Source: an uncultured virus (IMG/VR IMGVR_UViG_3300024297_000002) (taxonomy: Duplodnaviria; Heunggongvirae; Uroviricota; Caudoviricetes). From it: a stretch of DNA of 64,000 nt. Position 1 is the first letter of the stretch. Each line of letters starts with the position of its first letter. Made by a program: the position numbers and the translations under genes. Below the pieces are notes generated by a model that was given only the letters and a program-made list of their open reading frames with translations, was not told the origin of the DNA and made no database searches. The DNA lies in the IMG/VR virus record IMGVR_UViG_3300024297_000002, one strand, 5' to 3'. Of the stretch, positions 6,701 to 42,838 are shown one piece after another.

Positions 6701-9700
6701 ACCTTGCCCACCGTTTTGTTTGTCAAAAACATTTGCATTTGATTGTATTGTGTAAACAGGATAGAAGTAACCGTAGTCTCCTGAACTTGCACCTGAAGAA
6801 CTTCTAGCAAGTACTGTGTATGGTCCTGAATCTTCTACTGTTCCTCCAACAAGACTTATTGTTGGAACTTTTGTGTATCCTGATCCTGCATTTGTTATTG
6901 TTAATGATTTTACGTGTTTTGTATAATGATCTTGCCACATTTTATACGGAAACTCTGTCATAAGTGTTGCATCAACGTCAGTATTTGGTTGAGGCGGTCT
7001 TACTTTAGATTTTGCGGTTTCATAGAATGGTGGTAAATCAAAGTCTGTGTTTAATCCGTCCTGTGTTTCAGTATTTGTATATTTTAATTTGTATTCACGT
7101 ATTTTTGTATGGAATGGTTTGATTTCATTTATGTACGATTCTACGTAATCATCTTTTCCTGTTGTATATGTTTTTCTTTGATTTAAAGGTCTTAAACTAT
7201 TTGTAATGTTTAAGAAAGATGATTTAAACAACCAGTTAACATATGGTTGTTCGGATAATACATATCTTAATCCTATAAAGAAAATTGTATTGTATTCTTT
7301 GTTTAAGTCGCCAACAAAGATATCATCACGTAATGCAGTTAAAATGTTTCTAGTTTCAATAATTGGTTCTCTGTCAAAGAAGTTTTCATCATATGTGTCA
7401 TCTCCTTCAAACCCTGAATCTTCAATTGTGTAGTCATATATTTTTGCAGATAGTTGAATTGTTCCATTTTGCGTTGCAACATTTTTAAAACCAGTTGCAG
7501 TTTTTTGATAAATTTTCCAACCGCCTGAATCTGATGTTACTACTTTAACGTAGTCTCCTACATTTACTTCTACACCGTCTAAATCATATTGGTAATCAAC
7601 CTGTTTGCTGATATAGGTGTCTGTTGATACTCCTGTGTCATACCAATCGTAGTATGCCCAAAAATCACTTGTTTTATATGTTTGAATTTTTGTTCTATTC
7701 CATGTGCCTGCAACTGCATTCCATTGATATATTGACCAGAATCCTGCCGCTGTTTCATCTGCTTTAACAAGATAATTTACGTTTCCGCTTAAATCTTTTG
7801 TGTTAACATAAGTTAAATCTTGATATGTATCAACTGACCCATCCCACTCTAGACTTTCTTTTGTAGGTTGTGGATCTGCTTTATCTAAATTTTTAAAACC
7901 AATTGCACCTATTAACGGTTTGGATTTTACAATAGTGTTGGCATACTGTATTATTTCTTTTAATGCTGTAAATCTGTCAATGTACCAACTTTGTCTAGGT
8001 CTTAGTTCAGTTCCGTATCTTCTATTAAGAGGTAAATTTGTATCCGGAACAGATGCTCCTAAACTGTCTGTACCTGTTAAACTATCCCACCATTTACTTT
8101 CTAATGCAGGTGTAGGCCTAATTGCTGGATCACCCTCTGCATATAATTTCCATACTTTATGAGAATCTATCTCGTTATCGTTTTCTCTGTAATCAACATT
8201 GAAAACAATATTATCATTCATTAATGTTTCTTTTACATTCCATAGAATTAGTTTATTTTTATCAGAAACTGCAAAATATCTCAATCCTGCTTTGTCTGGA
8301 TCTGTTATGATGTTACTGATATATGCACACGAGTTTGATCTTATCATTGTTGTTTGATCTAACGTTGGAACAACTGCAGAATTCTTAACCCAGAAATAAT
8401 AAAAATTTATAAATTCGTCTTTTGCAGAATCATATTTTTGTTTGATAGTAAATTGTGTATCGTCTATTGCTCTCGGTGTTCCAGAAATTTTATCTGTTAA
8501 TCCTGCCTGTGTATCTGCTAATCCGTTCCATTCAGAAGGTAATAATGTAGTTTCAATCCATTCATATATGTCAATAGTTGATCCAGGAAACAGTTTACCC
8601 CAATTTTTAGTTTTGTATTCTTGATCACCTTGTTCATACCATATCCATTTTGCTTTAGACAGATCCCACCATGTTTCGCCTTTGTGTTCTTCTGCCCATG
8701 CCGTTTCAGAATCTTCTGTTCCAAATGCATTATAATTGTATGTTGCTGGATCCCATGTAGTCTTATATTTGATTTCTCTGTCTGCCAATCCAAATATTCT
8801 TTTCTTTAATGGATCGTAGTAGTTTAACCAATCTTTAATTTTATTTGTTGCACGATCAAATATGAATGCTGATTCAATTCTGGTGTTGTTGACTAATGGC
8901 GTTTCTACTCTTAGACAATGCCAAGGAGTTCGACCAGATTTTGTCGAATCATAATGAGCGACAGATCCGTCATTAACATAAGTTGTTGATCCGTCTGCTG
9001 TTATACCGGCATCATCCGCTGGTGCACCAACAAATATGCTGTTGTCGGTTATGAATACTGATTGTCCAAATTGATCATTTGAAGAAACATTGTCATTTAC
9101 CAGTCTATCATCTAGTAGGTATTGAGTATCGTATTTTGTTGCTGTGAATACTGCCCCTGCTTCTCTGTTAATGTCTATTAACTGTGTGTCTTGCAGATCA
9201 AATGTAGTTGATCCTGTATCAAATTTCATTGTTCTAGGATTATCAGCACCTTGTGCCGCAATAATAATTTTATTACCTGAATGATTTATGTTTACTTTTG
9301 CACCGAATTTTACATTTGTCATGTCGCCTGCAGGAGTAATAGTTTGCTGTAATGTGTATGTGTTTGTAGATCCGTCTGCATTCCATTTGTAATAGTATAC
9401 TGCACCTGCATCATCTTTGAATGCTGTCGAACTGCCGTCTTGTACTTCTGTTCCTGGTGCACCGACTATAAGTGCTGATCCGTCTTTGCTCATTGCAATC
9501 GAATCACCAAATGCTGTGTTCTTTGAACTACCGTCTGCTGATATTCCTTCAAACACCTGCACTTCTGACCATGTGTACTGTGTAGAATCGTTATTTGTAT
9601 TACTTGTTCTTTTGAATATGTGTACTCTGCCTGCGTTGCCTGGAGATTTTGAACTCACTGCAAGAATATCTCCTGCATCATTTACTGCAACCTGATGCCC

Positions 9701-12700
9701 AAATCTGTGTCCTGCATTTACATTTGTTGGATATATTTCTGCTTCTTGTGTCCATGTATCGTATGTTGACCCATCTGTACCTACCGCCCATCTGTACATA
9801 TGAACTTTTCCTGTGTCGTTGTTTGCTCCAGGAGAACTTATGAACATATACTTGTCAGGAGTTTTTACTGTGCTGTTTTCACCTGGCTCTGCTACTGCAT
9901 GATCCCAACCAAAATGTAAATTTGCTAATGATGTTGAATCTTTTGGATACGGTGGATATATTGCTCCTCCAAGATCATATTCTATTTTTGAAGAGTTCCA
10001 TTTATACCATTTAACAAGACCTTGATCGTCATAGTGTGTACTACCGTCTACACTTTTATTATTGTATGGTGCACCTGCTACAAGATAATTTTCATCTGAA
10101 CTCAATGACAACGAGTAACCAAGTTTACTTGTACTGTCGTTATTTTCTGTCATTGTTTTTGTGTCTAATACTGCAAATGGCTCACCCGGTGTTGATTCTT
10201 TTCTAAAATAAAAATTGAGAACTCCTTGTGTGTCTGTTGGTGATGATGCAATTAACGTTCTGCCGTCATTTCTAGCAACTACTTGCCAACCAAAGTTTTG
10301 ACTGTTTTTTCTAGTAGGCGATTGTACTTGATTATAGTTTAACCATTCTTGTCTTTCATAAACTTTCCACGTTCCGGTTTCGTTATCTATAAAAACTTTA
10401 TCTCCCGGTATACCGTTTAATTCATCTTTAACTTTGTAATCATCAAAATCAATCTGATCATTTACATCATCTATTGTCGGAAATCTTACAGAAACAAATT
10501 TACTAACATCACCATAAGAAGTAACTGTTGATTGGTCTGTTATATTTGATAATTCTGATATATTTCCTATAAAATCAACACACACTTTACTTGATGATGC
10601 AACTTTTTTAATTGTAAACACTTTGTTAAGTGCAGTATTTTTAGATCCTGACACTAACATAAAATCGCCAACTTTAAATGTGTGGTATGTATTAAAACTT
10701 AATTCTAACTGTGTTCCTTCATTTATGCTTTGTAATTTTGTTAATCTTATAGGTGTTCTAGTAACTCTTAAAACGTCCCAGTCGTTTATTTTATTGTTTG
10801 CTACCCAAATTAAATCTTGGTTAGATACTCTGCTTACATTTAAGTTTAGTACATCTGCAATATTAAATGCTGTATGTTGTACGTCATCAAATCTTGGATA
10901 TCCTGCATTTTTATAGTACTGTACTGATTCTCTGTCTACTTCTGCTTTTTTGTAATTAAATGTTGAAAAAGTTGTTGATGCTTTGTACTCTAACGGTTTT
11001 TCGTACATTTCGACCGATGGTACAGTTGCTGATCTATTATAGTTTACTGCGTCATTTGTTGTGTCTAATAATTCAACACTTTGAGGATTGTGTAAGAATT
11101 TTGAATCGTCCATTTTAAATTGAACAGATTTTTTAGCATCAACATTTCCAAACTCGCCTGTTCTAATCATCCATTCTGGATATACTGATAATGTAATGTC
11201 TTCGTCTAAAAATTTTGCTCTTGCTAACTTATTAATTGCATTCTGTGTACCTTTTTCTCTAATAAATCCTTGATAAAATTTATATTGAGAAATATCGTTT
11301 ACAAATAGATTATTCAAATAATCTCTAGATTGATATCCAATCAAATGCTGTGCAAGTCCTTGCTGTACAGCATCAAAATTATCTGTTTCTAGATCATAGA
11401 AATCATTAAATTGTGCAATTTTATAATCAAAGTTAGGTATTAACTCTGGCGTAGGCTGACCAATTCTTGTGTAATTAGACAAATTAAACTCTTTACCTGA
11501 GTTATGATTAACTTTTGCCATGTAGTATTTTGCTTGATACTCTAACGAATCTCCAATTTTATAATCTGTGTTTGCATTCCAGAACGAAACTTCTGCTTTG
11601 TCGTACATAAATCCTGGCGAATGAAATCCTCCATTCCAGTTAGCAGTTTTCCAACCTACTAATTTTAGTCTCGACTGTCTAAATCCTGTTGCTGGATCAT
11701 AAATTATATCACTGAATACTGTTTTATTGTCAAACACCAACATATGTTCTTTTTCAACAGAGTGTAATTCCATTCCGTAAATTCCAACATTTTCGTTTTT
11801 TGATATTGCATTGAAAGTATTGCCTTCTCTTTTTACTGAAATATCTCTTTCGGAAATTGACCTTCCACCTGCATCTAACACAGTATAATTGTTATAAACG
11901 TTTTTTAATTTTCCTATTACAGAATTTGTTGTTTCTAAATTAAATCCACTTGCTCCCGGAGATACTGTTATGGCAGATCCGGCCGCCCACCCTTGTGTTG
12001 TCCAGTATAAAAACTCATCTATTGCTGTATTCCAGTTAAGTGTTTTATCTATTTCTTTTGAATATCTGTCAAATGCAAAGCCTTGAGATTCTAACCATTG
12101 TCCATATCCTTGTAAGAACTCGGCAACATCCTGCCTAGTTTCGAACAATGTTCCATATGTAACAGTTTCAACAGTATCTGAACGATCTTTATACACCGAT
12201 ACTCTTGCTGATCCTTGTACCTTAACAGTACTATTGCTATTTCTAATTGGCACATACATTTTAAATATTGGATTTGTTATGTCGTATCCTGTTACTCTAT
12301 AACCAGGTGCAATTGACGATCCATCACTCGATACTGTAGAATTTTTTTCTATCAGCACACCACTGTAATAAAACTTTTTAACAGGATTACTTGTTCTGAA
12401 ATATATTTTATAATTCTCAGTAGGTAAAAATTGTGAACCTGATGTAGATCCTGGAGATATCGAATCTGTTAAAATTTTTAAATTTGCTTTATCTGTGAAT
12501 CCACCTAACTTATATGCTAATTGTACATTTAAGTTTTTCATCTTATCATAATAAAAAGTTGCAGGATCTAACCCTTGCGACATCAAATAGTTAACTGCGT
12601 ATGGTTGATATCCTGATGTTTGATACCTTGTAACAACACCTGTTTCTGTATTAGTCGATGTTTCTAAATGATATTTTACTGTTGCTGATTTTTGTCTTAA

Positions 12701-15700
12701 TCCTGTGTCTGTTATTACATAGTTTCCTACTAGATTTTTAGAAAGTCTGCTTGGATCTAAGTATGCTCCAAAAAATTTGCAAGGTTGTAAAACTGCAAGT
12801 GCTTTAATAACTGCAAATGCAAAACTTGAACTTCTTCTCCATGCTGTTTCCGCCGGGCCATGATCACCAAACTTCCATGGTTGTTTAAGATTTGCTCTTT
12901 GCCATTTGCCAATAACGTTTGCCGGTAATGCCATTGTGCCTGACGAATTAACTGGAATTCTGTAAGACATTCCTGGTCTAGCATATCTTGTATCTATATT
13001 TCCTGTACTAGCATCGTATCCTCGTTCAATGTCGCTCCATAAAACTTCATTCCCTGCTGTGTATGGTGCTGGTCCATATTTGTCTTCCCATTTAGCAGGC
13101 TTTTCAGAATGTCCTAACATTTCCCATGGATGAGTATGAGGTCTATCAGTATCAAAATAGTAATTAAATATTCCTCTCCAATATCCTGCTTCGTTATCTG
13201 TTCCGTTGATATCTTTACTTGCAGAATAGTTGAAAGTGAACGGATCAGAATCTACATATCCCGAATTAGTTCTAAAGTCTACATTGTTTCTTCCTGCCCA
13301 TATATAAAAGTCTTCACTCATTACTCCATTGACTTCATTCCTTGTAAACAGATTAGTACTGTGAGCACCAGGAAGTACACTATGAATATTAAGTAAATCT
13401 TTGTTGTATGTTGATTTAATATTGTTGTAAATTCTTTTTTCTAATTCTAAAAGTAAATCATCTCTGAAATCACCGTATGCAATAGACCTAGAACCATCGT
13501 GTCCAACAATTACTTGTTGTGCTGTTCTATACGAGTTGTCAGTTTCTAGTGCCGGTGTAAACTTAGGATACATACCTAATTTTGTCGGAGTAGGTGGAAT
13601 GTAACTTCCTTCAGTATTGGAATAATCTTTAATTTTGATAATGTCGCCGGTTGCAAGTGCTGATACAAAATGTATACTGTCAACAGTTGTGCTAAAAGTA
13701 TAATCAGTACCTAATAATAATTGTATATCATTTTTATAAACGTATACTGCTCTGTTGCTTAATACTGTTGGATCAAAAATACTATCAATTGAATATTCTG
13801 TTGCTGACGGATCTTGTACTGTATATTTTCTTTCAGTTTTGGATTCTCCAAATCCAATCATATCTTCATAATAAAAAGGTGATGCAACATTTTTTGCATA
13901 CGTCATTTCAGTTAAAATTTCATCAACTCTATCTGCAACGTTACCTTCGTATGTTGATCCTGTCGCCTGTGTTAAAAAATTTTCTTTAAATTTTTGATAT
14001 TCTAAGTTCGAATGGTCTAATGCTGTAATAAAGTTTGCTTCTTTGTCAATTAAGTTGAACATCGCAGAAGTTATTGAACCTGCATGATTTTGTAGTGCAC
14101 CACCTGTTAAGAATGATTCCGGTTTGTCTCTTAAATTGGTAGGTCCTGGTATAACACCTGTAATATCAGTTGATCTGTTACTTACGTTGATAATATGATT
14201 AGAGATTTGTCCTAATGTAAATTCGTTCAACGAGTCATTAAGAGAATTGTTTGATAGTATATCTGGTATCTCATATGCACCTTTGTCTTTAAGTTTTGGT
14301 GCTGTTGACCAACAGAATAAAGATACAATATCGTGTAATTTTAATTCTTTAGCAAATTTAACAAATTTGTTTGATGTTCCGTTTACTAGTGTAAAATCTG
14401 TGTTAATTTTTTTAATTACACCATTTACTTTTACAGCAACTTCTAAATCAGTTAACGATGCTGAATTTTTATAAACATCAACTGCAAATAATTTTTTTTC
14501 TGTTGCTGTTGCAAAATGAGTTCTTTTTACTCTTTGTTTTGATTCTGTTAATCTTTCTTTCCAGTTTGTTCTAGGATTGTAAGTTGTTAATCCTGTAATT
14601 TCATGTGTGAATCCTGTTGATGTTGTTTGAGTAATAAAATCATCACCTGATTTATACTTAAATGTTCCACTGTTAACATCAGATTCAAAAACTAAATCAC
14701 CAACATTGTTAATTGTATTATATTTTACTTGTAATCCTAAAACGGTGTCTGTTATTGCACCTGCTGATATTTTATAAGAAAATAATTCCGAACCTGCAAA
14801 GTTTGTAGATGAGTATATTGAATCATCGCTGTAACTGATTCCGTTTTTGTCAAATACATCAAACAACGGTTGTTGATTTAATTTTGTTTTCTTTTGACCT
14901 TCTATCCATTGGCTTAAATTTTTATCAGGCCCGGCAGTAGTTGAAAAGTGTAAAGTTTTACCTTGATTTTTTTCTCCAAATTCAACGTATACTTGTTCTC
15001 CGTCAACTGGGTATGTATCATTGATTTCTGCTAGTTGCAAAGCAATAACTGTTGACCCTGCTACCTTAACAAAATTAACTTCGTAAATTTTATTTTTAAC
15101 AAGTTTATCTGTGTCAGCAGTAAACAATATTCTCATACCGTTTGTTACTTCTAGACCGTCAACATAATAACCTGTTTGGTTAACCATAGATGAGAATACA
15201 TCAGTTGTTACATCATCAACAAGTGCAACTGATTTTTTTGCTATTGTACCGTAATTAAACAATTGAAGACCAGAATCAAATTCTATAATTGGTCTTTTTG
15301 CTCTGTCATCTTCTGACAATGTAAATTCTGATCCGTTTGCTGTTGCTGTTGCTTCAATTACAGATTTATGAAACCATCTGTTGTATCTTGACCAAGCATT
15401 TTGATCTACTGAATCACGTTTAATTGTAATGTAATCATGTTTGTCCGGTCTATAGAATGATTTTGCATATGGTCTTGAATCAAAGCCAACTGAATCATAT
15501 AATATTGTAGTTTCTGTTGCATATGTTTCTGGAGTAATTAAACTGTCAACATCAGTTAATGTAATTTTACTTCCAACACCCTCGATGTAAAAAGATTTGT
15601 CTCCGTATTTTTCTGTATCAATTACATTTGATCCAAATCTTATTTTCATTCCATTGGATAAAACTGTTCCATTACACATTGTATAGTTTACTGCACCTAC

Positions 15701-16606
15701 AATATCTTCTGTTGTATTAATTTTAGTTGTTGACGTTTCTGTTTGAATTTTTATAACACCGTGCATCGCTCCATGATTACCACATTGATAAAACAAAGAG
15801 TCAGGAGCATCTGTTGGTACTGTAAATGTTATTGTTCCTTTATCTATACCGTCGTTTGTTACTCCTTTTGTGTACAATATTGATGTACTACCGTCTGATG
15901 CTTTACCCGACGACACCGGCTCTGTCATTATCCACAACGGATGTCCGACTGCGTCAATTTTAAATTTATATGTGTTACCTCTGTATAAAGTTATTGCAGG
16001 ATTATCTTTGGCTTCATGAGTTGAAAATCTATACACTCCAACTTTTGGAACAGTTACCGCAATCTCTGTTGTTGAACCTGTCGCAATTTTATCAACTAAT
16101 ATTGCTGTTGGACCATTTGGCAACCAATAGTATTCTCTAAAGTTAACAAGTTTATCTGTGTCAACATACGGATTCCAAGAATATGTTTTCTCTTTTGTTA
16201 ATCTGTCATGATTGTCCACTGGAGCATTAAAATAACCTAATTGATTTAAAAAATCATCATAAGTTGCTGTAAATTTAATTTTTTCATCAATAGTAGTTGA
16301 TGTTGTGTCAACATCTGCAACAGTTACAGTTGGTTCTAACTGATACTGTGTTCTGCTTTTAGTTGTTGCACCTAAGTAATTGTCTGTTATATTCCTAGTA
16401 TAAGAATCTAATCTTCCAATATAACCATCTAGTCGTTCAAGTTTTCCTTTTTGTATTGCAGGATCTAGTGTGCTACTTAAAAATTTTTCGTTTGCGTCTG
16501 TTCTGTAGTAATGAGGAAGATGTGCAACGGTTCTTCTATATTCACGACCGTTTTTGTCTGTGACTACTTCGTATCTTTTTGTGCTGTCAATTGCGTTGTC
16601 TGCCAT
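3728..16606 (-). CDS. Giant (4292 aa) baseplate wedge-associated multidomain virion protein (gp7 position)
   Basis: Uninterrupted ORF directly downstream of gp6; contains a cupredoxin-like domain, FG-GAP-like propeller repeats, short W..Y..G....Y carbohydrate-binding-like motifs and C-terminal Ig-like repeats. Confidence 0.7.
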   Translation of the reverse strand: MADNAIDSTKRYEVVTDKNGREYRRTVAHLPHYYRTDANEKFLSSTLDPAIQKGKLERLDGYIGRLDSYTRNITDNYLGATTKSRTQYQLEPTVTVADVDTTSTTIDEKIKFTATYDDFLNQLGYFNAPVDNHDRLTKEKTYSWNPYVDTDKLVNFREYYWLPNGPTAILVDKIATGSTTEIAVTVPKVGVYRFSTHEAKDNPAITLYRGNTYKFKIDAVGHPLWIMTEPVSSGKASDGSTSILYTKGVTNDGIDKGTITFTVPTDAPDSLFYQCGNHGAMHGVIKIQTETSTTKINTTEDIVGAVNYTMCNGTVLSNGMKIRFGSNVIDTEKYGDKSFYIEGVGSKITLTDVDSLITPETYATETTILYDSVGFDSRPYAKSFYRPDKHDYITIKRDSVDQNAWSRYNRWFHKSVIEATATANGSEFTLSEDDRAKRPIIEFDSGLQLFNYGTIAKKSVALVDDVTTDVFSSMVNQTGYYVDGLEVTNGMRILFTADTDKLVKNKIYEVNFVKVAGSTVIALQLAEINDTYPVDGEQVYVEFGEKNQGKTLHFSTTAGPDKNLSQWIEGQKKTKLNQQPLFDVFDKNGISYSDDSIYSSTNFAGSELFSYKISAGAITDTVLGLQVKYNTINNVGDLVFESDVNSGTFKYKSGDDFITQTTSTGFTHEITGLTTYNPRTNWKERLTESKQRVKRTHFATATEKKLFAVDVYKNSASLTDLEVAVKVNGVIKKINTDFTLVNGTSNKFVKFAKELKLHDIVSLFCWSTAPKLKDKGAYEIPDILSNNSLNDSLNEFTLGQISNHIINVSNRSTDITGVIPGPTNLRDKPESFLTGGALQNHAGSITSAMFNLIDKEANFITALDHSNLEYQKFKENFLTQATGSTYEGNVADRVDEILTEMTYAKNVASPFYYEDMIGFGESKTERKYTVQDPSATEYSIDSIFDPTVLSNRAVYVYKNDIQLLLGTDYTFSTTVDSIHFVSALATGDIIKIKDYSNTEGSYIPPTPTKLGMYPKFTPALETDNSYRTAQQVIVGHDGSRSIAYGDFRDDLLLELEKRIYNNIKSTYNKDLLNIHSVLPGAHSTNLFTRNEVNGVMSEDFYIWAGRNNVDFRTNSGYVDSDPFTFNYSASKDINGTDNEAGYWRGIFNYYFDTDRPHTHPWEMLGHSEKPAKWEDKYGPAPYTAGNEVLWSDIERGYDASTGNIDTRYARPGMSYRIPVNSSGTMALPANVIGKWQRANLKQPWKFGDHGPAETAWRRSSSFAFAVIKALAVLQPCKFFGAYLDPSRLSKNLVGNYVITDTGLRQKSATVKYHLETSTNTETGVVTRYQTSGYQPYAVNYLMSQGLDPATFYYDKMKNLNVQLAYKLGGFTDKANLKILTDSISPGSTSGSQFLPTENYKIYFRTSNPVKKFYYSGVLIEKNSTVSSDGSSIAPGYRVTGYDITNPIFKMYVPIRNSNSTVKVQGSARVSVYKDRSDTVETVTYGTLFETRQDVAEFLQGYGQWLESQGFAFDRYSKEIDKTLNWNTAIDEFLYWTTQGWAAGSAITVSPGASGFNLETTNSVIGKLKNVYNNYTVLDAGGRSISERDISVKREGNTFNAISKNENVGIYGMELHSVEKEHMLVFDNKTVFSDIIYDPATGFRQSRLKLVGWKTANWNGGFHSPGFMYDKAEVSFWNANTDYKIGDSLEYQAKYYMAKVNHNSGKEFNLSNYTRIGQPTPELIPNFDYKIAQFNDFYDLETDNFDAVQQGLAQHLIGYQSRDYLNNLFVNDISQYKFYQGFIREKGTQNAINKLARAKFLDEDITLSVYPEWMIRTGEFGNVDAKKSVQFKMDDSKFLHNPQSVELLDTTNDAVNYNRSATVPSVEMYEKPLEYKASTTFSTFNYKKAEVDRESVQYYKNAGYPRFDDVQHTAFNIADVLNLNVSRVSNQDLIWVANNKINDWDVLRVTRTPIRLTKLQSINEGTQLELSFNTYHTFKVGDFMLVSGSKNTALNKVFTIKKVASSSKVCVDFIGNISELSNITDQSTVTSYGDVSKFVSVRFPTIDDVNDQIDFDDYKVKDELNGIPGDKVFIDNETGTWKVYERQEWLNYNQVQSPTRKNSQNFGWQVVARNDGRTLIASSPTDTQGVLNFYFRKESTPGEPFAVLDTKTMTENNDSTSKLGYSLSLSSDENYLVAGAPYNNKSVDGSTHYDDQGLVKWYKWNSSKIEYDLGGAIYPPYPKDSTSLANLHFGWDHAVAEPGENSTVKTPDKYMFISSPGANNDTGKVHMYRWAVGTDGSTYDTWTQEAEIYPTNVNAGHRFGHQVAVNDAGDILAVSSKSPGNAGRVHIFKRTSNTNNDSTQYTWSEVQVFEGISADGSSKNTAFGDSIAMSKDGSALIVGAPGTEVQDGSSTAFKDDAGAVYYYKWNADGSTNTYTLQQTITPAGDMTNVKFGAKVNINHSGNKIIIAAQGADNPRTMKFDTGSTTFDLQDTQLIDINREAGAVFTATKYDTQYLLDDRLVNDNVSSNDQFGQSVFITDNSIFVGAPADDAGITADGSTTYVNDGSVAHYDSTKSGRTPWHCLRVETPLVNNTRIESAFIFDRATNKIKDWLNYYDPLKKRIFGLADREIKYKTTWDPATYNYNAFGTEDSETAWAEEHKGETWWDLSKAKWIWYEQGDQEYKTKNWGKLFPGSTIDIYEWIETTLLPSEWNGLADTQAGLTDKISGTPRAIDDTQFTIKQKYDSAKDEFINFYYFWVKNSAVVPTLDQTTMIRSNSCAYISNIITDPDKAGLRYFAVSDKNKLILWNVKETLMNDNIVFNVDYRENDNEIDSHKVWKLYAEGDPAIRPTPALESKWWDSLTGTDSLGASVPDTNLPLNRRYGTELRPRQSWYIDRFTALKEIIQYANTIVKSKPLIGAIGFKNLDKADPQPTKESLEWDGSVDTYQDLTYVNTKDLSGNVNYLVKADETAAGFWSIYQWNAVAGTWNRTKIQTYKTSDFWAYYDWYDTGVSTDTYISKQVDYQYDLDGVEVNVGDYVKVVTSDSGGWKIYQKTATGFKNVATQNGTIQLSAKIYDYTIEDSGFEGDDTYDENFFDREPIIETRNILTALRDDIFVGDLNKEYNTIFFIGLRYVLSEQPYVNWLFKSSFLNITNSLRPLNQRKTYTTGKDDYVESYINEIKPFHTKIREYKLKYTNTETQDGLNTDFDLPPFYETAKSKVRPPQPNTDVDATLMTEFPYKMWQDHYTKHVKSLTITNAGSGYTKVPTISLVGGTVEDSGPYTVLARSSSGASSGDYGYFYPVYTIQSNANVFDKQNGGQGKSHSHTFDEYPTRTFYMPNSSMNHAEAIDPGTYKIFSPGTKTHATATAVISQGKITKVNLHTQGWGYTTTPEVIVTGGNEDGSNPTDTAKLSAVLGNDLVRDFDTTIRFDRIKSSADVKTWTASTTYEYGTLIRYDNELYRATQRITTGTTFTDTNLTKLRGNENYITAAERIQGMYAPDSGMPGLELSQLMEGIDYGGVQVTGLDFNREQGFDKSPWFEEPWDGYGKTRIRTFYGDGSTAQFIFTDAPNPTDVFTVYLNGVRQVNEVHRGDSSTTSFTLGSAPGNGVKVEFIPFDDDGVQTPTDDRTLDSLVTGGMFGSALGVDPNQVITDGDEFVSPDTSYAPEESIPGQIFDTLDIQVYSAPDSGVPFIVEKNYICDGTETTFDIGQKPGTQAAVSVIVNNVAKRLTDYTVDTQAETITFGSAPTSGQRLTIKSFAISGSQYMVLNDFVGDGSTKVFKTGTRENFAPDSSLSQLYVTVDGIPTSAYTTSSTANALTLTFNSAPASGKSIQIAGFNQTVGQGRAYAEIRQDTITYSSGTNRYTLTYPVGSYGPYAGLTILEHNGKVLRGPDNSYYIGDGSTYAYGVVSGLSDDSTIDPAKTITLASQVEVFVNGTEQDLNTDYTIDFGNQQVNFITPPAGTDVIAITTNVDTHYTYVGTDIILKTSQLSTDGITLNNNDTISATTFNNALGMKSRREVLEGRASGEHRLYNTPLNSNFVYVWFNNQPLQQGFDYTVSENVVKISGKTITSADRIDVLYFTVPSSTKQTGFRLFKDMLNRQFYKRIAKSGTTTLAQDLTDADKTITVVDASVLGDADGTTLLPGVIFIDKERIEFFQKSGNVLSQIRRGTLGTGIKAHIGGTKVVDASGKSTVPYSDTIYTNTYVSDGSTVSFATTITPSDARQLDIFIGGQRLLLTSEDGSTVNYTVSGSNVVLTNPVAANVQIRILMKKGQVWYTKGSSTAANGKGLNQSTTTAARFIAEEPTNTPE

Positions 16607-29219: not shown

Positions 29220-30981
29220 ATCATTATCAGTAAAAAACTTCATGAGTGTAGGTAATACTGCACAAGGTATTAATTTTGACAACAAAAGCCTTGTTCTAGT
29301 AATTGGTGAAAACATGGATCTAGGCGGTGACGATGCCGGTGCTAGGAATGGTACTGGTAAGACTACAATTATTAACGCACTATCATATGTGTTTTACGGA
29401 GAAGCATTAACAAGTATCAGGAGAGATAATCTTGTAAACAAAACTAACGAAAAAGGCATGATGGTTTCTGTGTCGTTTGTTAAAAACAATATTACATATA
29501 CTATTGAAAGAGGTAGAAAACCTCAAGTGTTTAGATTCTATGCAAACGAAATAGAACAGAATACAGAGAGTAACGAAGCACAAGGTGAGAACAAAGAAAC
29601 ACAGCAAGAAATAAACAAATTGCTTGGTATGACCCATGCCATGTTTAAAAACATAATTGCACTAAACACTTACACTTTACCGTTCCTTGCAACTAAACAA
29701 GGCGAACAGAGAGAAATTATTGAACAGTTGCTTGGTATAACACTCTTAAGTGAAAAATCAGATCTTTTAAAAGAACAAATGAAAGCAACTAAAAACGAGT
29801 TGCAAGAAGAAAAGATAAAACTAGATGCAAAAAATGCCTCTAACGAAAAAATACAAGAGTCTATCGAAAGTTTAAAAATAAGATCTAGTGCTTGGCAAAG
29901 TCAAAAAGATCAAGATTCTGTAAACTTTGCTCAAGCAATAGCAGAGTTAGAAAAAGTGGATATTAAAGCAGAATTAGAAGCACACAAAAAAGCACAATCT
30001 CACAGTGAAAATTATTTGAAACTACTGGGTTTACAAAAAGAAAAAGCATATCATGACGATGCGTTTACTAGAGCAGAAACAAATGTAACTAAAACCGAAT
30101 CTGATTTAAAATTTGCAGAACAGGCCAAGTGTCCAACTTGTGAACAATCATTGCATGATGAAAAACACAAACAACTAACTGATAATTTAATTGCTACACT
30201 GAATGAAAGTAAAGCAGACGTTACAAAAGCAAAAACTGATATTAATAATGTACAAAAGAGTATTGACGATATCGGCGATTTAGGACAAACTCCAGATACC
30301 TATTATGACAGCATTGATGAAGCATACAATCACAAAGGTTCATTAAAAGATTTACAAAGACAACTAGAACAAAACGAAGCCAAAGAAGATCCTTATGCAG
30401 AACAGGTAGAAGAACTAAACAAATCTGCAATACAAAAAATTGATTACACAATTATAAACGAACTCGAAGATCTAAACAGACATCAAGACTTTTTGTACAA
30501 ACTGTTAACAGCAAAAGATTCATTTATAAGAACAAGAATTATTGAACAGAACTTAACATATCTAAATCAAAGATTGGCATATTATCTAGGACAAGTAAAA
30601 CTTCCGCACACAGTTACATTCCAAAGTGACTTGACTGTGCGTATTGAAGAACTAGGTAGAGAACTTGATTTTGATAACTTGAGTAGAGGCGAAAGAAACA
30701 GATTAATATTATCTTTGAGTTGGGCATTTAGAGATGTATGGGAATCACTTTATCAACAGATCAACTTGTTGTTCATTGATGAATTGGTAGATGCTGGTAT
30801 GGACGCATCTGGCGTTGAATCTTCTATTGCTGTATTGAAAGACATGAGTAGAACACAGCAAAAGAATATTTTCCTAATATCTCACAAAGATGAACTGGTA
30901 AGCAGAGTGAATTCTGTACTGAAAGTAGTAAAAGAAAACGGTTTTACCAATTATGAAAATGATGTGGATATTATTGTTTAG
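29206..30981 (+). CDS. gp46: Recombination endonuclease ATPase gp46 (Rad50/SbcC-like)
   Basis: KNFMS, Walker A NGTGKT, coiled coil with CPTC zinc hook, LSRGE signature, LLFIDE Walker B, ISH. Confidence 0.95.
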   Translation: MLTIKSLSVKNFMSVGNTAQGINFDNKSLVLVIGENMDLGGDDAGARNGTGKTTIINALSYVFYGEALTSIRRDNLVNKTNEKGMMVSVSFVKNNITYTIERGRKPQVFRFYANEIEQNTESNEAQGENKETQQEINKLLGMTHAMFKNIIALNTYTLPFLATKQGEQREIIEQLLGITLLSEKSDLLKEQMKATKNELQEEKIKLDAKNASNEKIQESIESLKIRSSAWQSQKDQDSVNFAQAIAELEKVDIKAELEAHKKAQSHSENYLKLLGLQKEKAYHDDAFTRAETNVTKTESDLKFAEQAKCPTCEQSLHDEKHKQLTDNLIATLNESKADVTKAKTDINNVQKSIDDIGDLGQTPDTYYDSIDEAYNHKGSLKDLQRQLEQNEAKEDPYAEQVEELNKSAIQKIDYTIINELEDLNRHQDFLYKLLTAKDSFIRTRIIEQNLTYLNQRLAYYLGQVKLPHTVTFQSDLTVRIEELGRELDFDNLSRGERNRLILSLSWAFRDVWESLYQQINLLFIDELVDAGMDASGVESSIAVLKDMSRTQQKNIFLISHKDELVSRVNSVLKVVKENGFTNYENDVDIIV

Positions 30982-30988
30982 ATTTTAC

Positions 30989-31018
30989 TTGACAAAACCA
31001 GATCATACGTGCTTTAAT
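30989..31018 (+). promoter_or_regulatory. Sigma70-type promoter for the histone-like gene
   Basis: TTGACA-N18-TTTAAT, with the -10 preceded by TG (extended -10). Confidence 0.5.
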
Positions 31019-31058
31019 AAAAGATATATTAATTAATAATATAAAGAAGGATATAATT

Positions 31059-31250
31059 ATGTCAGAAACACATGAACAGATCATGACTGAGATTCAAACT
31101 TACTCTGAAGAGAATCAAAAATTCACAGAGAAAGGTGTTAAAGCAAGTGCCACAAGAGCAAGAAAGGCATTAGCATCTCTTTCAAAATTGATCAAAGCAA
31201 GAAGAAAAGAAATTCAAGAAGTTAAAAACGCGGCAAAGACAGCGGCGTAA
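31059..31250 (+). CDS. Histone H1-like (Hc1 family) small basic DNA-binding protein
   Basis: KF.EKGVKASATRARKAL..L.KL.K.RRKEIQE.KN matches the Hc1 N-terminal pattern; AAGGA SD. Confidence 0.75.
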   Translation: MSETHEQIMTEIQTYSEENQKFTEKGVKASATRARKALASLSKLIKARRKEIQEVKNAAKTAA

Positions 31251-31273
31251 TTTTTAATTATTGAGATCTCATT

Positions 31274-31308
31274 AAAGCCTGTGCAATTATGTTGTGCAGG
31301 CTTTTTTT
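31274..31308. terminator. Intrinsic, probably bidirectional terminator between convergent genes
   Basis: AAAGCCTGTGCAAT-tat-GTTGTGCAGGCTTTTTTT. Confidence 0.75.
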
Positions 31309-31741
31309 ACGACTCGAGAATACCTTTGCTTTTTTTCTCTCTGATAATTCCAGATCCGTGTATTCGCACTCTGATATGACCGTTGTAATAATCATCAGTC
31401 TCAAGAACTTTACGTGCAAATTGTTCTCTGGCTTCTATGTAGGATAGTTCTGCTCTGGATTTACAATAAAAAAGTATTTCTCGTGTAAATTTGTCTTTAC
31501 CAAGTTTTTGGACATCTTCGGTCAAAGCATCACTTGAACCAAAATACTCTTTCCAATCTGATTCCACTGTATATCTGCGTTTGTTGACTCTCCCTTTTAA
31601 CGGAGGTCTTGCTTTTTTGAACTCTGCTAACTTTTTACCAATATATTTCCTACCATTAGTTGTATTTGTGATCTGATACACGAACCCAACTACACCTTCT
31701 GGTACTTCATCTACTATTTCTTCTTTGTATGTCCACTGCAT
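31307..31741 (-). CDS. GIY-YIG endonuclease (Seg-like, catalytic domain only); probable start MQWTY at 31741
   Basis: GFVYQITNTTNGRKYIGKK...Y.GSS...F.REIL...L.Y.E...Q......YYN; TAAATA box 5 nt upstream of the ATG at 31741. Confidence 0.85.
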   Translation of the reverse strand: MQWTYKEEIVDEVPEGVVGFVYQITNTTNGRKYIGKKLAEFKKARPPLKGRVNKRRYTVESDWKEYFGSSDALTEDVQKLGKDKFTREILFYCKSRAELSYIEAREQFARKVLETDDYYNGHIRVRIHGSGIIREKKSKGILES

Positions 31742-31764
31742 ACTACTATTTAAAGCCAAAAAGA

Positions 31765-31793
31765 TTGACCTGTAAAAATGTTTATGTTATATA
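31765..31793 (+). promoter_or_regulatory. Sigma70-type promoter pointing into the non-coding structured locus
   Basis: TTGACC-N17-TATATA, with TG at the extended -10 position. Confidence 0.6.
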
Positions 31794-31799
31794 CAAGTG

Positions 31800-32222
31800 A
31801 TAGGCAACACAGCAAATTAAAATTTCTCATAGGCAAATATAGCATCTTCGTACATAAGGGAGTTACGGTGTAACAACACAGGCGAATCCCATGATGCAAA
31901 CAGCAAAAAATGATGAGGCTCTTAGAAAAAGATAAACCTCAGGTTTACCAAATACTATTGTGTAAGGGTTTGGTAGGCTCGCGTTGGATGAATGAGTTAA
32001 CGGGTACAGCACAACCGCCCGGCGAAAGCAACGATACACAATGACTACGATACTCGCCACAGATTATCAAAGTTAGTTCGGCTAGAAATAGCCGAATTAT
32101 GACTACTCATCTGCCACAGAATACGCAACACTAGAAGTTGCGTTAAAAGTTATTTTCGAGATTGCGTAAATTAGAAGTAAACTGAGCGTAAGCGAAAGTT
32201 TAGATGTCTTTAGACATCTTTT
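31800..32222 (+). ncRNA. Candidate large structured ncRNA (or RNA-primed origin locus)
   Basis: No credible ORF; at least eight stems, GNRA loops and G-U pairs favouring the + strand; 8-9 bp loop-to-downstream pseudoknot; internal direct repeats; upstream promoter; ends in a hairpin followed by T4. Confidence 0.6.
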
Positions 32223-32233
32223 AGTTGATGTGA

Positions 32234-32638
32234 TTACTCTTCTTCGTCGTCAACTTTGTTATACTTTTCAGATAGTACTGACTTTAATTCCGGTTCTTCT
32301 GATTCTTCAATATTGGAAACATCCTCATCAGTTAATTCTACTTCCTTATCCGGTTCAAAATCTTTGATTTTTTCTTTTGCGAGTTTTAATACTTCTTCCA
32401 TGGTTTCCAGTTTTGCTTTTAGTGTGGCGACCTTAAGTTTTAGTTCCTCGTTTTCCTGTTTTACGCCCGCGGCGTGTTTGCCGACATGGTCTACGTCTCT
32501 GGTAGCATTTTCTAATCGTATGAGTATCTGCTTGTTACGACTCTCTTTTTGAGAAACTGCCTGATGTAGGTGTTCCTTTTCAAGTGTTAGGTCTTTGATT
32601 GTATTTTTAAGTTCTAGGACTAGATCGCTGGTCGACAT
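32234..32638 (-). CDS. Coiled-coil protein with acidic C-terminus, unknown function
   Basis: Heptad-rich 134-aa ORF; TAAATA box 9 nt upstream. Confidence 0.6.
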   Translation of the reverse strand: MSTSDLVLELKNTIKDLTLEKEHLHQAVSQKESRNKQILIRLENATRDVDHVGKHAAGVKQENEELKLKVATLKAKLETMEEVLKLAKEKIKDFEPDKEVELTDEDVSNIEESEEPELKSVLSEKYNKVDDEEE

Positions 32639-32688
32639 ATGTTCATTTATTTAAAGAGGTCTGTGTTCCATTATAGTATACTATAATT

Positions 32689-32910
32689 CTAAAAAAATGG
32701 TTGTCCGGTTTTCTTGGCAGTTTCCAAGTTCTCTTTTATTATGTCTGCAATAATTTTTCTCTCCTCTACAGAAAGGTTTAGAGATTCTTGCCATGTCACG
32801 CCTCCTCGCATATACCAGCATATTTTAAGCAGTTCGTGTTTGATGTTTTTGGATTCATTTTCTAGATCCTTGAAATATGATAAAATGTCAGACTCCGTGA
32901 GTGTCAGCAA
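32689..32910 (-). CDS. Tail/baseplate assembly chaperone C-terminal ORF (gp51/gpT-like), probably reached by -1 frameshift
   Basis: CWYMRGGVTW.E...L..EER pattern; no ATG or SD; lies in the -1 frame of the upstream gene beyond a slippery site. Confidence 0.6.
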   Translation of the reverse strand: MLTLTESDILSYFKDLENESKNIKHELLKICWYMRGGVTWQESLNLSVEERKIIADIIKENLETAKKTGQPFF

Positions 32911-32912
32911 CT

Positions 32913-33770
32913 TTATCCGAAAAAATTTGCGTTATCAAACGTGATAGGTACTTGGTATGTTGCCGGTGCACCTTTCTTAATTTGCTCTTCTGTAGATTTT
33001 GCAGTCATGGGTTTCAATGAACCCTGCTGTCTTATTTTGACCAATGCGGCTTCTAACTCCTGAACCAATTTTGCATCTGCGTTCTCGATGAATTCACTTA
33101 TCTGTGCTGAATCAGATACTTCTTCACCGGCCGGTAGAGTTATTGTTTCAATGTTAGACAACAGCAATCTCGAATTCAGTTCTGTCAGTGTTTTAAAACT
33201 TTCATTGAACATTTTTGCCTTGTCTTCGTCTTTCAGTGTTGATGAATTGACCTGCATATATTTTCTTTGCTGTTCAAATGTTTTTAATTGTGTGTCAGTC
33301 ATCATTTTGTAAGTCAACGGTTTTACTTTTATTTTCATTCCGTTTGCCAATGTTGCTTCTTCCATGATTTTTGTGTTGTGTATCGTCTCAAGCATAGAGG
33401 GTAAGTTAACTGAATGATTGGTTGGTTCATTTATTAGTGGTACCTGGGTGCTCACTTCCATGCTTTCACCGTAACCTGCAATTCTGATTGCGATCAACAC
33501 AGTGTCCACATCATAGTTCACAAGTCTCCATGGGTCCTTGATATCAGGAATGCATGATTTGATCACATCCACTGTGGATTGTCCACTCATCATAGAATCC
33601 GGTGTCTTGAATGCTAGATCATCCTTGGCTGTCATGGGCAATACTGCGTGTTCGCCTGTTTCGGATGGTGTTACTATGTCATCGGAATAGTACTTTCCGC
33701 CAGATGGGAATTTTATATAGATTGCCGGCTGTCTATAAAATTTTGTTAAAGGGTTTGTTTTTTCTTCCAT
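32913..33770 (-). CDS. Baseplate hub / tail assembly chaperone (gp26-like)
   Basis: NPL..FYRQP.IY...PSGG.YY; V.PMTA.D....KTPD....G.....VI.SC.P; D.D..LIAIRIA.YGE; ends FD.ANFFG; adjacent to the tape measure. Confidence 0.7.
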   Translation of the reverse strand: MEEKTNPLTKFYRQPAIYIKFPSGGKYYSDDIVTPSETGEHAVLPMTAKDDLAFKTPDSMMSGQSTVDVIKSCIPDIKDPWRLVNYDVDTVLIAIRIAGYGESMEVSTQVPLINEPTNHSVNLPSMLETIHNTKIMEEATLANGMKIKVKPLTYKMMTDTQLKTFEQQRKYMQVNSSTLKDEDKAKMFNESFKTLTELNSRLLLSNIETITLPAGEEVSDSAQISEFIENADAKLVQELEAALVKIRQQGSLKPMTAKSTEEQIKKGAPATYQVPITFDNANFFG

Positions 33771-42570: not shown

Positions 42571-42598
42571 TCTATTTTGATTATTCAAAACTGAATTT

Positions 42599-42632
42599 AA
42601 AAGGGCGGACATTTTTTGTTCGCCCTTTTTTT
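42599..42632 (+). terminator. Intrinsic terminator after gp23
   Basis: AAAAGGGCGGACA-tttt-TTGTTCGCCCTTTTTTT. Confidence 0.85.
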
Positions 42633-42655
42633 GTTTAACAAGAGAGGAAAAAATT

Positions 42656-42772
42656 ATGAAAAAAATGCTTAAGAATAAATGGTTATGGGCAGGCGCAGTA
42701 GTAGTTGTAGCATTAGTGTTATGGCAAATGGGTATCTTTAGTCCAGCAGAAGTACCTGCAGACGCACAATAA
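42656..42772 (+). CDS. 38-aa single-pass membrane peptide (below the ORF-track cutoff)
   Basis: MKKMLKNKWLWAGAVVVVALVLWQMGIFSPAEVPADAQ; GAGAGGA SD; flanked by terminators. Confidence 0.7.
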   Translation: MKKMLKNKWLWAGAVVVVALVLWQMGIFSPAEVPADAQ

Positions 42773-42789
42773 TAAACAAATTTAAATCT

Positions 42790-42821
42790 TAAGGGCGATG
42801 CTTTTTTATCGCCCTTTTTTT
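42790..42821 (+). terminator. Intrinsic terminator
   Basis: AAGGGCGAT...ATCGCCCTTTTTTT. Confidence 0.85.
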
Positions 42822-42838
42822 ACGACTTAAATATCAAT

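Follow-up and report, generated by a model that had tools for sequence, protein, structure and literature searches.

A large structured RNA that carries one variable word at two sites, from a lineage of uncultured marine T4-like phages

Introduction

Large, intricately folded RNAs of bacteria and their phages are rare, and past cases proved to be ribozymes, guide RNAs such as those of HEARO/IscB, or self-assembling cages such as GOLLD and ROOL. Here we describe a further candidate, a predicted RNA gene of about 425 nt at positions 31799–32222 (+ strand) of a 64,000-nt stretch of DNA from an uncultured virus of the class Caudoviricetes (IMG/VR record IMGVR_UViG_3300024297_000002), which is referred to as the window throughout. 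An earlier note, made from the letters of this DNA alone, had proposed an undescribed structured phage RNA read from the + strand and equipped with its own promoter. That proposal is supported by covariation among relatives, by an asymmetry between G-U and A-C pairs, by the lack of any match in Rfam and by contigs from RNA libraries. The RNA further contains two copies of a short word that changes from lineage to lineage while the copies stay the same as each other (the twin words).

Several described systems resemble this RNA in part. Like GOLLD and ROOL, it is several hundred nucleotides long, has many helices and pseudoknot pairing, is borne by phages and has no assigned function; it is smaller than they are, it gave no match to their covariance models at any threshold tried, and to our knowledge no twin words have been reported for either. 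The OMEGA RNAs (the HEARO/IscB omega RNA and the TnpB reRNA) are also large structured RNAs beside a small nuclease gene, and an overlap with the 3' end of the nuclease open reading frame (ORF) is found in one clade here. The window RNA differs from them in that its neighbour is a GIY-YIG nuclease (SegE_GIY-YIG) and not the RuvC/HNH enzyme IscB or TnpB, in that a transposon end and a terminal guide of 15–20 nt are both missing, and in that its variable part is an internal word of 7–9 nt present twice; the HEARO model of Rfam does not match it. T-box leaders are likewise scaffolds that expose a short and hypervariable word, containing a triplet and, directly after it, a conserved purine, and they lie directly upstream of genes linked to transfer RNA (tRNA), as this RNA does at 30 of 70 loci. 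Yet it lacks the T-box sequence, Stem I, the antiterminator and any Rfam match, its word occurs twice and covaries over at least 7 nt, and the window copy stands alone with its own terminator.

Short sequences that recur at a fixed spacing within one transcript are known from ToxI, a type III antitoxin, and from CRISPR repeats. Here, by contrast, about 20 nt is repeated and not a whole unit, a conserved hairpin and not a spacer lies between the copies, and, unlike for ToxI, we know of no cognate endoribonuclease. Finally, in the non-coding RNA of the DRT2 defence system and in the R repeats of retroviruses, two short direct repeats must match each other whatever their sequence, which is also the behaviour of the twin words; in contrast to those systems, no reverse transcriptase was found among the ORFs of the 64-kb window.

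Results

Covariation identifies a structured RNA outside Rfam

The window spans the structural and recombination region of a T4-like myovirus, and a simple tiling of ORFs covers 95% of it. Its largest ORF-free stretch lies at 31742–32233 (492 nt), which bears out the earlier description of this gap as the largest non-coding stretch, and only one further gap exceeds 250 nt. The latter, of 268 nt, lies at 42571–42838, directly downstream of the major capsid gene.

To evaluate the fold, 51 main-clade sequences were aligned with MAFFT (alignment A3) and compared with an explicit pairing model of 94 pairs in 18 helices, which includes both long-range pairings of the earlier note. Over the 4563 cells of the model 93.0% can pair, compared with 33.7–38.2% when the 3' partners are slid by 1–3 columns, and compensatory changes, with both sides altered, are present at 51 of the 94 pairs. 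None of 500 shuffles reached any of the five pairing measures. Because related sequences can beat shuffles without any structure, through kinship alone, the slid control and the count of compensated pairs are the stronger evidence. RNAalifold, run independently on the same alignment, returned 57 pairs, 35 of them with compensatory changes. The structure proposed from the single sequence is thus backed by covariation in relatives, the long-range pseudoknot included. Within helix cells G-U occurs 425 times and A-C 111 times (about 4 to 1), so the RNA is read from the + strand of the window, as the G-U pairs of the single sequence had suggested. Single-sequence folding, for its part, is better than that of shuffled controls, but modestly and to a similar degree on both strands (minimum free energy z = −2.29 on the + strand and −2.03 on the − strand). 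The case for a structured RNA is one of covariation and not of folding energy.

When the window was searched with the 4227 models of Rfam 15, no match reached the gathering score anywhere in its 64 kb. At E<=10 the gap gave four matches only, all resembling small nucleolar RNAs and scoring 12–17 bits against cut-offs of 38–60; 14 divergent loci gave no match, nor did 20 further members at E<=1. The covariance search proposed in the earlier note therefore came back empty, and the gap matches no known family. ARAGORN found no tRNA or transfer-messenger RNA (tmRNA) gene in the window, no group I or group II intron model of Rfam matched, and the RNA interrupts no gene, all of which upholds the earlier view that it is neither tRNA, tmRNA nor group I/II intron. 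The T-box model (RF00230) was also without a match, and no UGGN element is conserved in alignments A2 or A3. Taken together, the comparative evidence indicates that the gap is a stand-alone gene for a structured RNA of about 425 nt from a family outside Rfam, and that this family is a new RNA class.

Literature searches yielded no prior description of such an RNA. A survey of intergenic regions in IMG/VR lists candidate structured RNAs of 29–151 nt named in the form DNAVirus_X (PMC10690425). The core 18-mer of the present RNA is absent from those supplements of that survey that were searched, two large alignment files and one further file lying outside the search, and fragments of the RNA may be listed among its candidates.

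Promoter, ends and presence in marine RNA libraries

A sigma-70-type promoter can be read at 31765–31793 (+), with TTGACC at 31765–70, a spacer of 17 nt and TGT-TATATA at 31785–93. TATATA itself occupies 31788–31793 and is preceded by TGT as in an extended −10 element; the promoter of the earlier note is hence present, one base off the position it had implied. A scan for consensus promoters omitted it, as the rule of that scan demands T as the last −10 base. The promoter word GATTGACCT is retained in 10 of 13 distinct close relatives. At the other end, a 7-bp hairpin (32202–08/32213–19, helix 18 of the pairing model) is followed by a T run, the element as a whole covering 32202–32222 (+). The terminator scan lists this hairpin at 32202–32219 with TTTA behind it, in agreement with the terminal hairpins and T run described before. 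The predicted 5' end of the RNA is set by the promoter and the predicted 3' end by the hairpin plus T run.

Twenty sequencing runs from 16 studies contain part of a 601-nt stretch around the RNA, and 14 of the 20 are recorded as RNA. For four RNA runs, from four marine metatranscriptome studies, assembled contigs were compared with window positions 30800–33200. Contigs without a single differing letter cover 31811–32113, 31803–32090, 31811–31961 plus 32016–32187, and 31819–32076, and one contig runs on from 32187 to 32337. The starts at 31803, 31811 and 31819 lie near the predicted start of the RNA. Some contigs from these four runs lie on the upstream Hc1 gene and none on the GIY-YIG gene. 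The metatranscriptome comparison that the earlier note had in mind thus places the RNA stretch in contigs from four studies, blind to strand as assembled contigs are.

Predicted fold

The RNA is predicted from covariation to fold into at least 14 helices held by a long-range pseudoknot, with four GNRA-capped stems and an invariant 11-nt hairpin loop. Its 5' leader (31802–31835, +) contains two near-invariant AGGCA boxes at 31802–06 and 31831–35, as judged from alignments A2 and A3. Some relatives have three such boxes, and no pairing partner for them was found in either alignment. The 5' domain (31842–31897, +) follows, with H1 at 31842–46/31893–97, H2 at 31858–60/31888–90 and H3 at 31868–71/31876–79. 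The GCATC/GATGC stem that had been noted as H1 is paired in 96.5% of cells, with changes on both sides at three of five pairs, and the GGGA/TCCC stem (H2) in 95.1%, with three pairs changed on both sides. The inner GTTAC/GTAAC hairpin proposed alongside them is not the conserved one; instead, relatives keep GTGT-AACA-ACAC (H3). All four of its pairs are compensated, but only 64.7% of its cells pair in the MAFFT alignment, which handles H3, the hairpin around the first word copy and H12 poorly, so that the lower figures for these three are uncertain.

The next element, H4 (31914–31941, +), is the hairpin TGAGG/CCTCA with an inner CTT/AAG stem (helices 4 and 5 of the model). TGAGG/CCTCA is paired in 98.8% of cells, and the GC at 31918–19 is invariant in 67 of 67 aligned core sequences. 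The long hairpin H5 (31942–31979, +; helix 6) pairs 31942–52 with 31969–79 and, inside this, 31955–56 with 31965–66. Described earlier as a 12-bp stem, it is 96.1% paired with 11 of 13 pairs compensated, and its loop (31957–64) forms the 5' strand of the pseudoknot PK1, whose 3' strand is TACACAAT at 32035–32042 (+; helix 7). This long-range pairing, the most consequential of the earlier proposals for the fold, is present in 97.8% of cells and compensated at six of eight pairs. An alignment-free comparison gives the same picture: in 57 of the 67 core sequences, divergent clades included, a complementary run of at least 7 nt joins the two PK1 sites, made from 28 distinct words, and the mean complementary run over the 67 is 7.1, compared with 5.1 after shuffling.

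Between the two strands of PK1 lies the core (31982–32033, +; helices 8, 10 and 11), in which CGTT/AACG (31982–85/32030–33) encloses H7 (32001–05/32017–21) and H8, the GC-GAAA-GC hairpin at 32022–29. The stem CGGGT/GCCCG (H7) is paired in 100% of cells and its 11-nt loop, ACAGCACAACC (32006–16), is invariant; H8 is likewise 100% paired, with both of its pairs compensated. The enclosing CGTT/AACG stem holds in that it is 97% paired, but it shows no change on both sides. The core pattern GGGTAC.GCACAACCGCC is invariant in 67 of 67 sequences, a figure to be read with the fact that the same word served as the pattern of a further search for relatives. The second long-range pair that had been suggested as possible, ATGAGT/ACTCAT (PK2, 31993–97/32105–09), is weak: 85.7% of its cells pair, with a single compensated pair.

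Towards the 3' end, the 11-bp hairpin with a GAAA loop (H11, 32074–32099, +; helix 14) is paired in 99.1% of cells, with 5 of 11 pairs compensated. It is followed by H12 (32123–32143, +; helix 15), a variable hairpin ACGCAAC/GTTGCGT in a region rich in insertions and deletions, in which 86% of cells pair. The H13 module AAACT-GA-GC-GTAA-GC-GAA-AGTTT (32179–32201, +) combines a stem (helix 16; 94.5% paired, all five pairs compensated) with a GA/GAA internal loop and a second stem that has a GNRA cap (helix 17; 100% paired), and is retained in divergent clades.

The same word occurs at two sites

Two direct repeats of about 20 nt flank the invariant H11 hairpin, one of the form TGACT...CTC-word and the other TGACT...TCT-word. 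In the window, repeat unit 1 (32042–32068, +) comprises TGACT at 32042–46 and a hairpin, 32049–52/32065–68, with word copy 1, GCCACAG, in its loop at 32056–62. Repeat unit 2 (32100–32119, +) comprises TGACT at 32100–04, ACTCA at 32105–09, which is the possible partner in PK2, and word copy 2, again GCCACAG, at 32113–19. The two 7-mers are identical within the RNA in 48 of the 51 sequences of alignment A3, and the three exceptions differ at position 7 only. Eleven word combinations occur among the 51 RNAs, of which nine are identical pairs. Letter by letter, the twins agree at 354 of 357 places, compared with a mean of 261 (standard deviation 7) for shuffled sites, and none of 2000 shuffles was as high. 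All 51 sequences have A at position 6 of the word. A mutual-information scan of the six other word columns showed that positions 1, 2, 3 and 7 each find their strongest correlation in their own twin, with no third column involved; positions 4 and 5 are uninformative, as several other columns score the same there as the twin.

Divergent clades obey the same rule with unrelated words, among them AGATGAT, GGATGAT, TGGTAAT, TGGTAAAG, GGCAAGTT and GGAAAA. The 4 nt directly upstream of the words remain different between the two sites in all members (CTC versus TCT), from which simple gene conversion seems an unlikely cause of the twin rule. The spacing between copies is 52–62 nt. Even with G-U pairs allowed, no complementary third site recurs inside the RNA or in the 2.5 kb that flank it on each side, and covariation of the words in the absence of such a site implies a partner that acts in trans. 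We infer from these alignments that both word copies are single-stranded over 7–9 nt and are read by one trans partner, and that this partner or its target differs between lineages.

Relatives and genomic setting

Relatives were gathered initially through the GIY-YIG protein, using the best 80 of 579 related IMG/VR stretches, and blastn found the gap in 19 of these 80 at 70–100% identity. Searching IMG/VR with the core pattern added at least 120 further stretches. In all, the core word is carried by at least 139 of 200 loci, and 109 of the 139 hold full-length copies, 87 of them distinct. A core-word match at locus L095 was dropped because alignment showed it inside a coding gene. An nhmmer profile and a covariance model of the core domain recover more diverged copies that lack the exact core word. 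No match was obtained by blastn of the gap against 50,697 phage records or with the core covariance model in the cultured phages searched, and a 71-nt core query against cultured phages at E<=10 gave chance matches in coding genes only. In bacterial genomes the core 18-mer occurs at 54 places, against about 70 estimated by chance, and nhmmer identified five true copies. All five are on short contigs of marine metagenome-assembled genome bins (L230, L238, L250, L251 and L253), the bin labels being Neomarinimicrobiota, Rickettsiales, Pacearchaeota, Pseudobdellovibrionaceae and Betaproteobacteria. These labels are unrelated to one another, the copies are probably mis-binned phage DNA, and no host inference was drawn from them.

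All relatives come from one syntenic phage lineage in which the order gp46, (Hc1), GIY-YIG, RNA, ..., hub is kept throughout. The capsid protein shares 68–72% identity with its counterparts in the jumbo phages PA5oct and Phosso, and the gp46/47 DNA also matches Atu_ph07. Because CheckV rates a related 196-kb contig as 55% complete, genomes of the lineage are probably about 350 kb long. The RNA family thus belongs to T4-like phages of a marine, uncultured and probably giant lineage. Five related contigs (G002–G006, behind loci L150, L128, L114, L105 and L129), 476 kb in total, yielded no tRNA gene, which is probably unusual for phages of such apparent size.

In the window the RNA sits between complete genes, with gp46-like and Hc1 genes upstream and an opposite-strand gene downstream. 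The genes around the gap encode a gp55-like late sigma factor, SbcD/gp47, SbcC/gp46, an Hc1 histone-like protein, the SegE-type GIY-YIG protein, the products of two small genes, a T4-type baseplate hub, a tape-measure-like protein, the gp20 portal, a prohead protease and the gp23 capsid protein. The Hc1 protein (chlamydial histone H1-like; 63 aa, 31059–31250, +; Pfam E 1.6e-12) is conserved two genes upstream of the RNA. The baseplate/tail region contains a single ORF of 4292 aa at 3728–16606 (−).

The syntenic region of PA5oct (L260:4290-5320; NC_071039.1, about 75.8–76.8 kb) is a stretch of about 1 kb that separates SbcC from the baseplate hub and in which all annotated ORFs are tiny. It has a TTGACA-N17-TATAAT promoter in front and contains a box, TAGGCAATATAAGCGTC, that resembles TAGGCAAATATAGCATC of the window (a 17-nt look-alike, recognized by eye), and parts of the stretch match three places in each PA5oct-like genome. 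Homology with the RNA was considered and rejected, as nhmmer --max at E<=10 and covariance model R1 were both empty. Some GIY-YIG loci without a detectable RNA keep several AGGCAAAC-like boxes and a poorly coding stretch downstream (L041:4400-4950), which may be a more diverged or a different RNA.

Discussion

The reading we favor, at a probability of roughly 0.35, is that the RNA acts in trans as an adaptor and uses its twin words to address a partner through base pairing. The RNA would be made early, from a host-type promoter, and its conserved scaffold would display a lineage-specific, single-stranded word of 7–9 nt twice, on either side of the invariant GAAA hairpin. The same partner would read both copies and would be encoded neither in the RNA nor beside it; most likely it would be a nucleic acid recognized by base pairing, for example a host RNA. 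The scaffold would in turn bind a phage protein, for which the candidates are the GIY-YIG nuclease and, in many relatives, a protein resembling aminoacyl-tRNA transferases. A more specific form of the proposal makes the RNA a programmable adaptor, with one 7–9-nt address presented twice and re-tuned per lineage so as to direct the adjacent GIY-YIG nuclease or aminoacyl-tRNA-dependent transferase; in this form we consider it doubtful.

Several points weigh against the adaptor. No partner has been found for the twin words, and for a guide 7 nt is short. The twin rule would be explained just as well by a dimeric protein or by a process that merely needs identical copies. Within the window there is no enrichment of the word and its complement, with 7 matches against 3.8 expected, two of the seven being the RNA's own copies. 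For words of 8–9 nt in three large contigs, the counts were 4 versus 0, 7 versus 4 and 11 versus 4 in comparison with a reversed-pattern control, each including the RNA's own two copies, so that the excess is mild; an 11-nt pattern with one mismatch allowed gave 10 matches versus 8 for the control in the 196-kb contig and missed copy 2 of the RNA. The evidence for expression consists of assembled contigs, which attest to presence and not to strand, true ends or abundance, and the z-score of the single-sequence fold is only −2.3. Finally, with one syntenic lineage at hand, the adjacency of the GIY-YIG and transferase-like genes may reflect inherited order or an insertion hot spot.

A related possibility is that the RNA is the partner or guide of the adjacent GIY-YIG nuclease, in the manner of OMEGA systems, with the words addressing the two strands of an inverted-repeat target. 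The nuclease gene (31307–31741, −; 144 aa from ATG) is divergent from the RNA, and its Pfam domain (PF19835, E 7.5e-37) fills residues 3–123, leaving a protein with the catalytic domain only. A GIY-YIG gene lies within 1.3 kb upstream at 57 of the 71 RNA loci with enough flanking sequence, 47 times divergent as in the window and 10 times co-directional, and seen from the protein side 45 of the 58 GIY-YIG loci with enough flank carry the RNA, to which the covariance model adds two. In the co-directional clade the stop codon of the nuclease ORF falls inside the first helix of the RNA (5' domain), and TnpB guide RNAs likewise overlap the 3' end of their nuclease ORF. The association is far from strict, however: the gene is farther off at 3 of the 71 loci and lacking at 11, and the protein family is widespread, with 554 phage records, mostly from cyanophages. 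At four cultured loci (Melnitz, P-HM1, phiM7 and Cellulophaga phi4:1) the GIY-YIG gene is present with no large gap beside it and no covariance-model match. The partnership suggested in the earlier note therefore stands as adjacency, in either orientation, and falters where one of the two occurs without the other. Moreover, no inverted-repeat target was seen in the window and literature searches yielded no RNA-guided GIY-YIG enzyme, and we judge a nuclease guide of this kind unlikely.

The second neighbour points to tRNA. A 257-aa ORF (L099:2729-3502, +) has homologues at 34 of 70 related loci, and at 30 of the 70 it starts about 25 nt past the last hairpin of the RNA on the same strand; at two further loci a 27%-identical homologue lies divergently upstream, at the usual place of the GIY-YIG gene. 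The protein has no Pfam match. Its AlphaFold model, built on a 20-sequence alignment with a pLDDT of 80.8, found ATE1 first in a fold search (E 1.2e-6, TMq 0.51), followed by L-PGS, A-PGS, MprF and FemX, all with modest TM-scores, while the acetyl-CoA-dependent GNAT acetyltransferases VipF and Eis ranked lower, below about E 6e-4. The predicted fold suggests a protein like the aminoacyl-tRNA-dependent transferases. The RNA might accordingly bind tRNA, the codon-like triplet of the word and the invariant A pairing with the anticodon loop of a host tRNA, and so regulate or assist the downstream transferase. The last hairpin mostly lacks a T run where the 257-aa gene follows, the A at word position 6 is placed as after a T-box specifier, and neighbouring word types differ by single triplet changes such as CAC to UAC or AUG to GUG. 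On the other hand, the clade to which the window belongs lacks such a gene within 64 kb, and the last hairpin there does carry a T run, so that the RNA ends in a terminator. Word position 2, moreover, is G in 8 of the 51 main-clade sequences and in most word types of the divergent clades. It would face anticodon-loop position 37, which is almost always a purine, and the word as a full complement of the anticodon loop fails there for many word types and was rejected. The absence of a T-box match and of a conserved UGGN element also speaks against such binding, and the tRNA-free contigs offer no phage tRNA for comparison. We regard a tRNA-binding role as quite unlikely.

Alternatively, the RNA could be a processing substrate or a ribozyme in which the words mark two sites of cleavage or ligation, so that a piece of about 57 nt containing the GAAA hairpin is freed as a small or circular RNA. 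Identical words flanking the best-conserved hairpin at their fixed spacing of 52–62 nt would suit this scheme, the invariant 11-nt loop, pseudoknot and several GNRA loops resemble a catalytic core, and one contig from an RNA library stops at 32113, where copy 2 begins, although this is a single observation and the ends of an RNA cannot be read from assembled contigs. The RNA matches no known self-cleaving family, and such free variation is not expected of a site that a protein or the core of a ribozyme reads, which makes processing improbable as the reason for the twin words. More improbable still is a self-assembling RNA-only particle. In being large, ornate, phage-borne and of unassigned function the RNA is reminiscent of GOLLD and ROOL as treated in a cryo-EM paper (PMC12286853), but it matches neither of their Rfam families in sequence or structure, and in most members the exposed words lack self-complementarity. 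An element acting at the DNA level, for example an iteron origin or recombination site, to which two direct repeats of about 20 bp around an 11-bp inverted repeat would lend themselves, or a missed protein gene is very improbable, since compensatory changes keep RNA pairs, G-U exceeds A-C four to one, and the ORF of 44 codons at 31910 is not conserved and is stopped after four codons in most relatives. As for a role as R-loop primer for replication, also raised in the earlier note, no finding speaks in its favor.

Whatever its role, the RNA turns up in marine metatranscriptomes of many studies, and the more than 100 natural variants with their dense covariation suffice to draw a secondary structure with confidence and to begin cryo-EM or chemical probing. 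An experimental handle is offered by the twin-word rule, as swapping the word should re-target the activity of the RNA. It also adjoins two enzymes whose specificity is unexplained, a GIY-YIG nuclease that consists of a catalytic domain only and a divergent protein resembling aminoacyl-tRNA transferases. If the adaptor reading is true, an adaptor with the nuclease as effector would amount to an RNA-guided GIY-YIG enzyme, and one with the transferase as effector to an RNA-specified choice of tRNA outside the ribosome.

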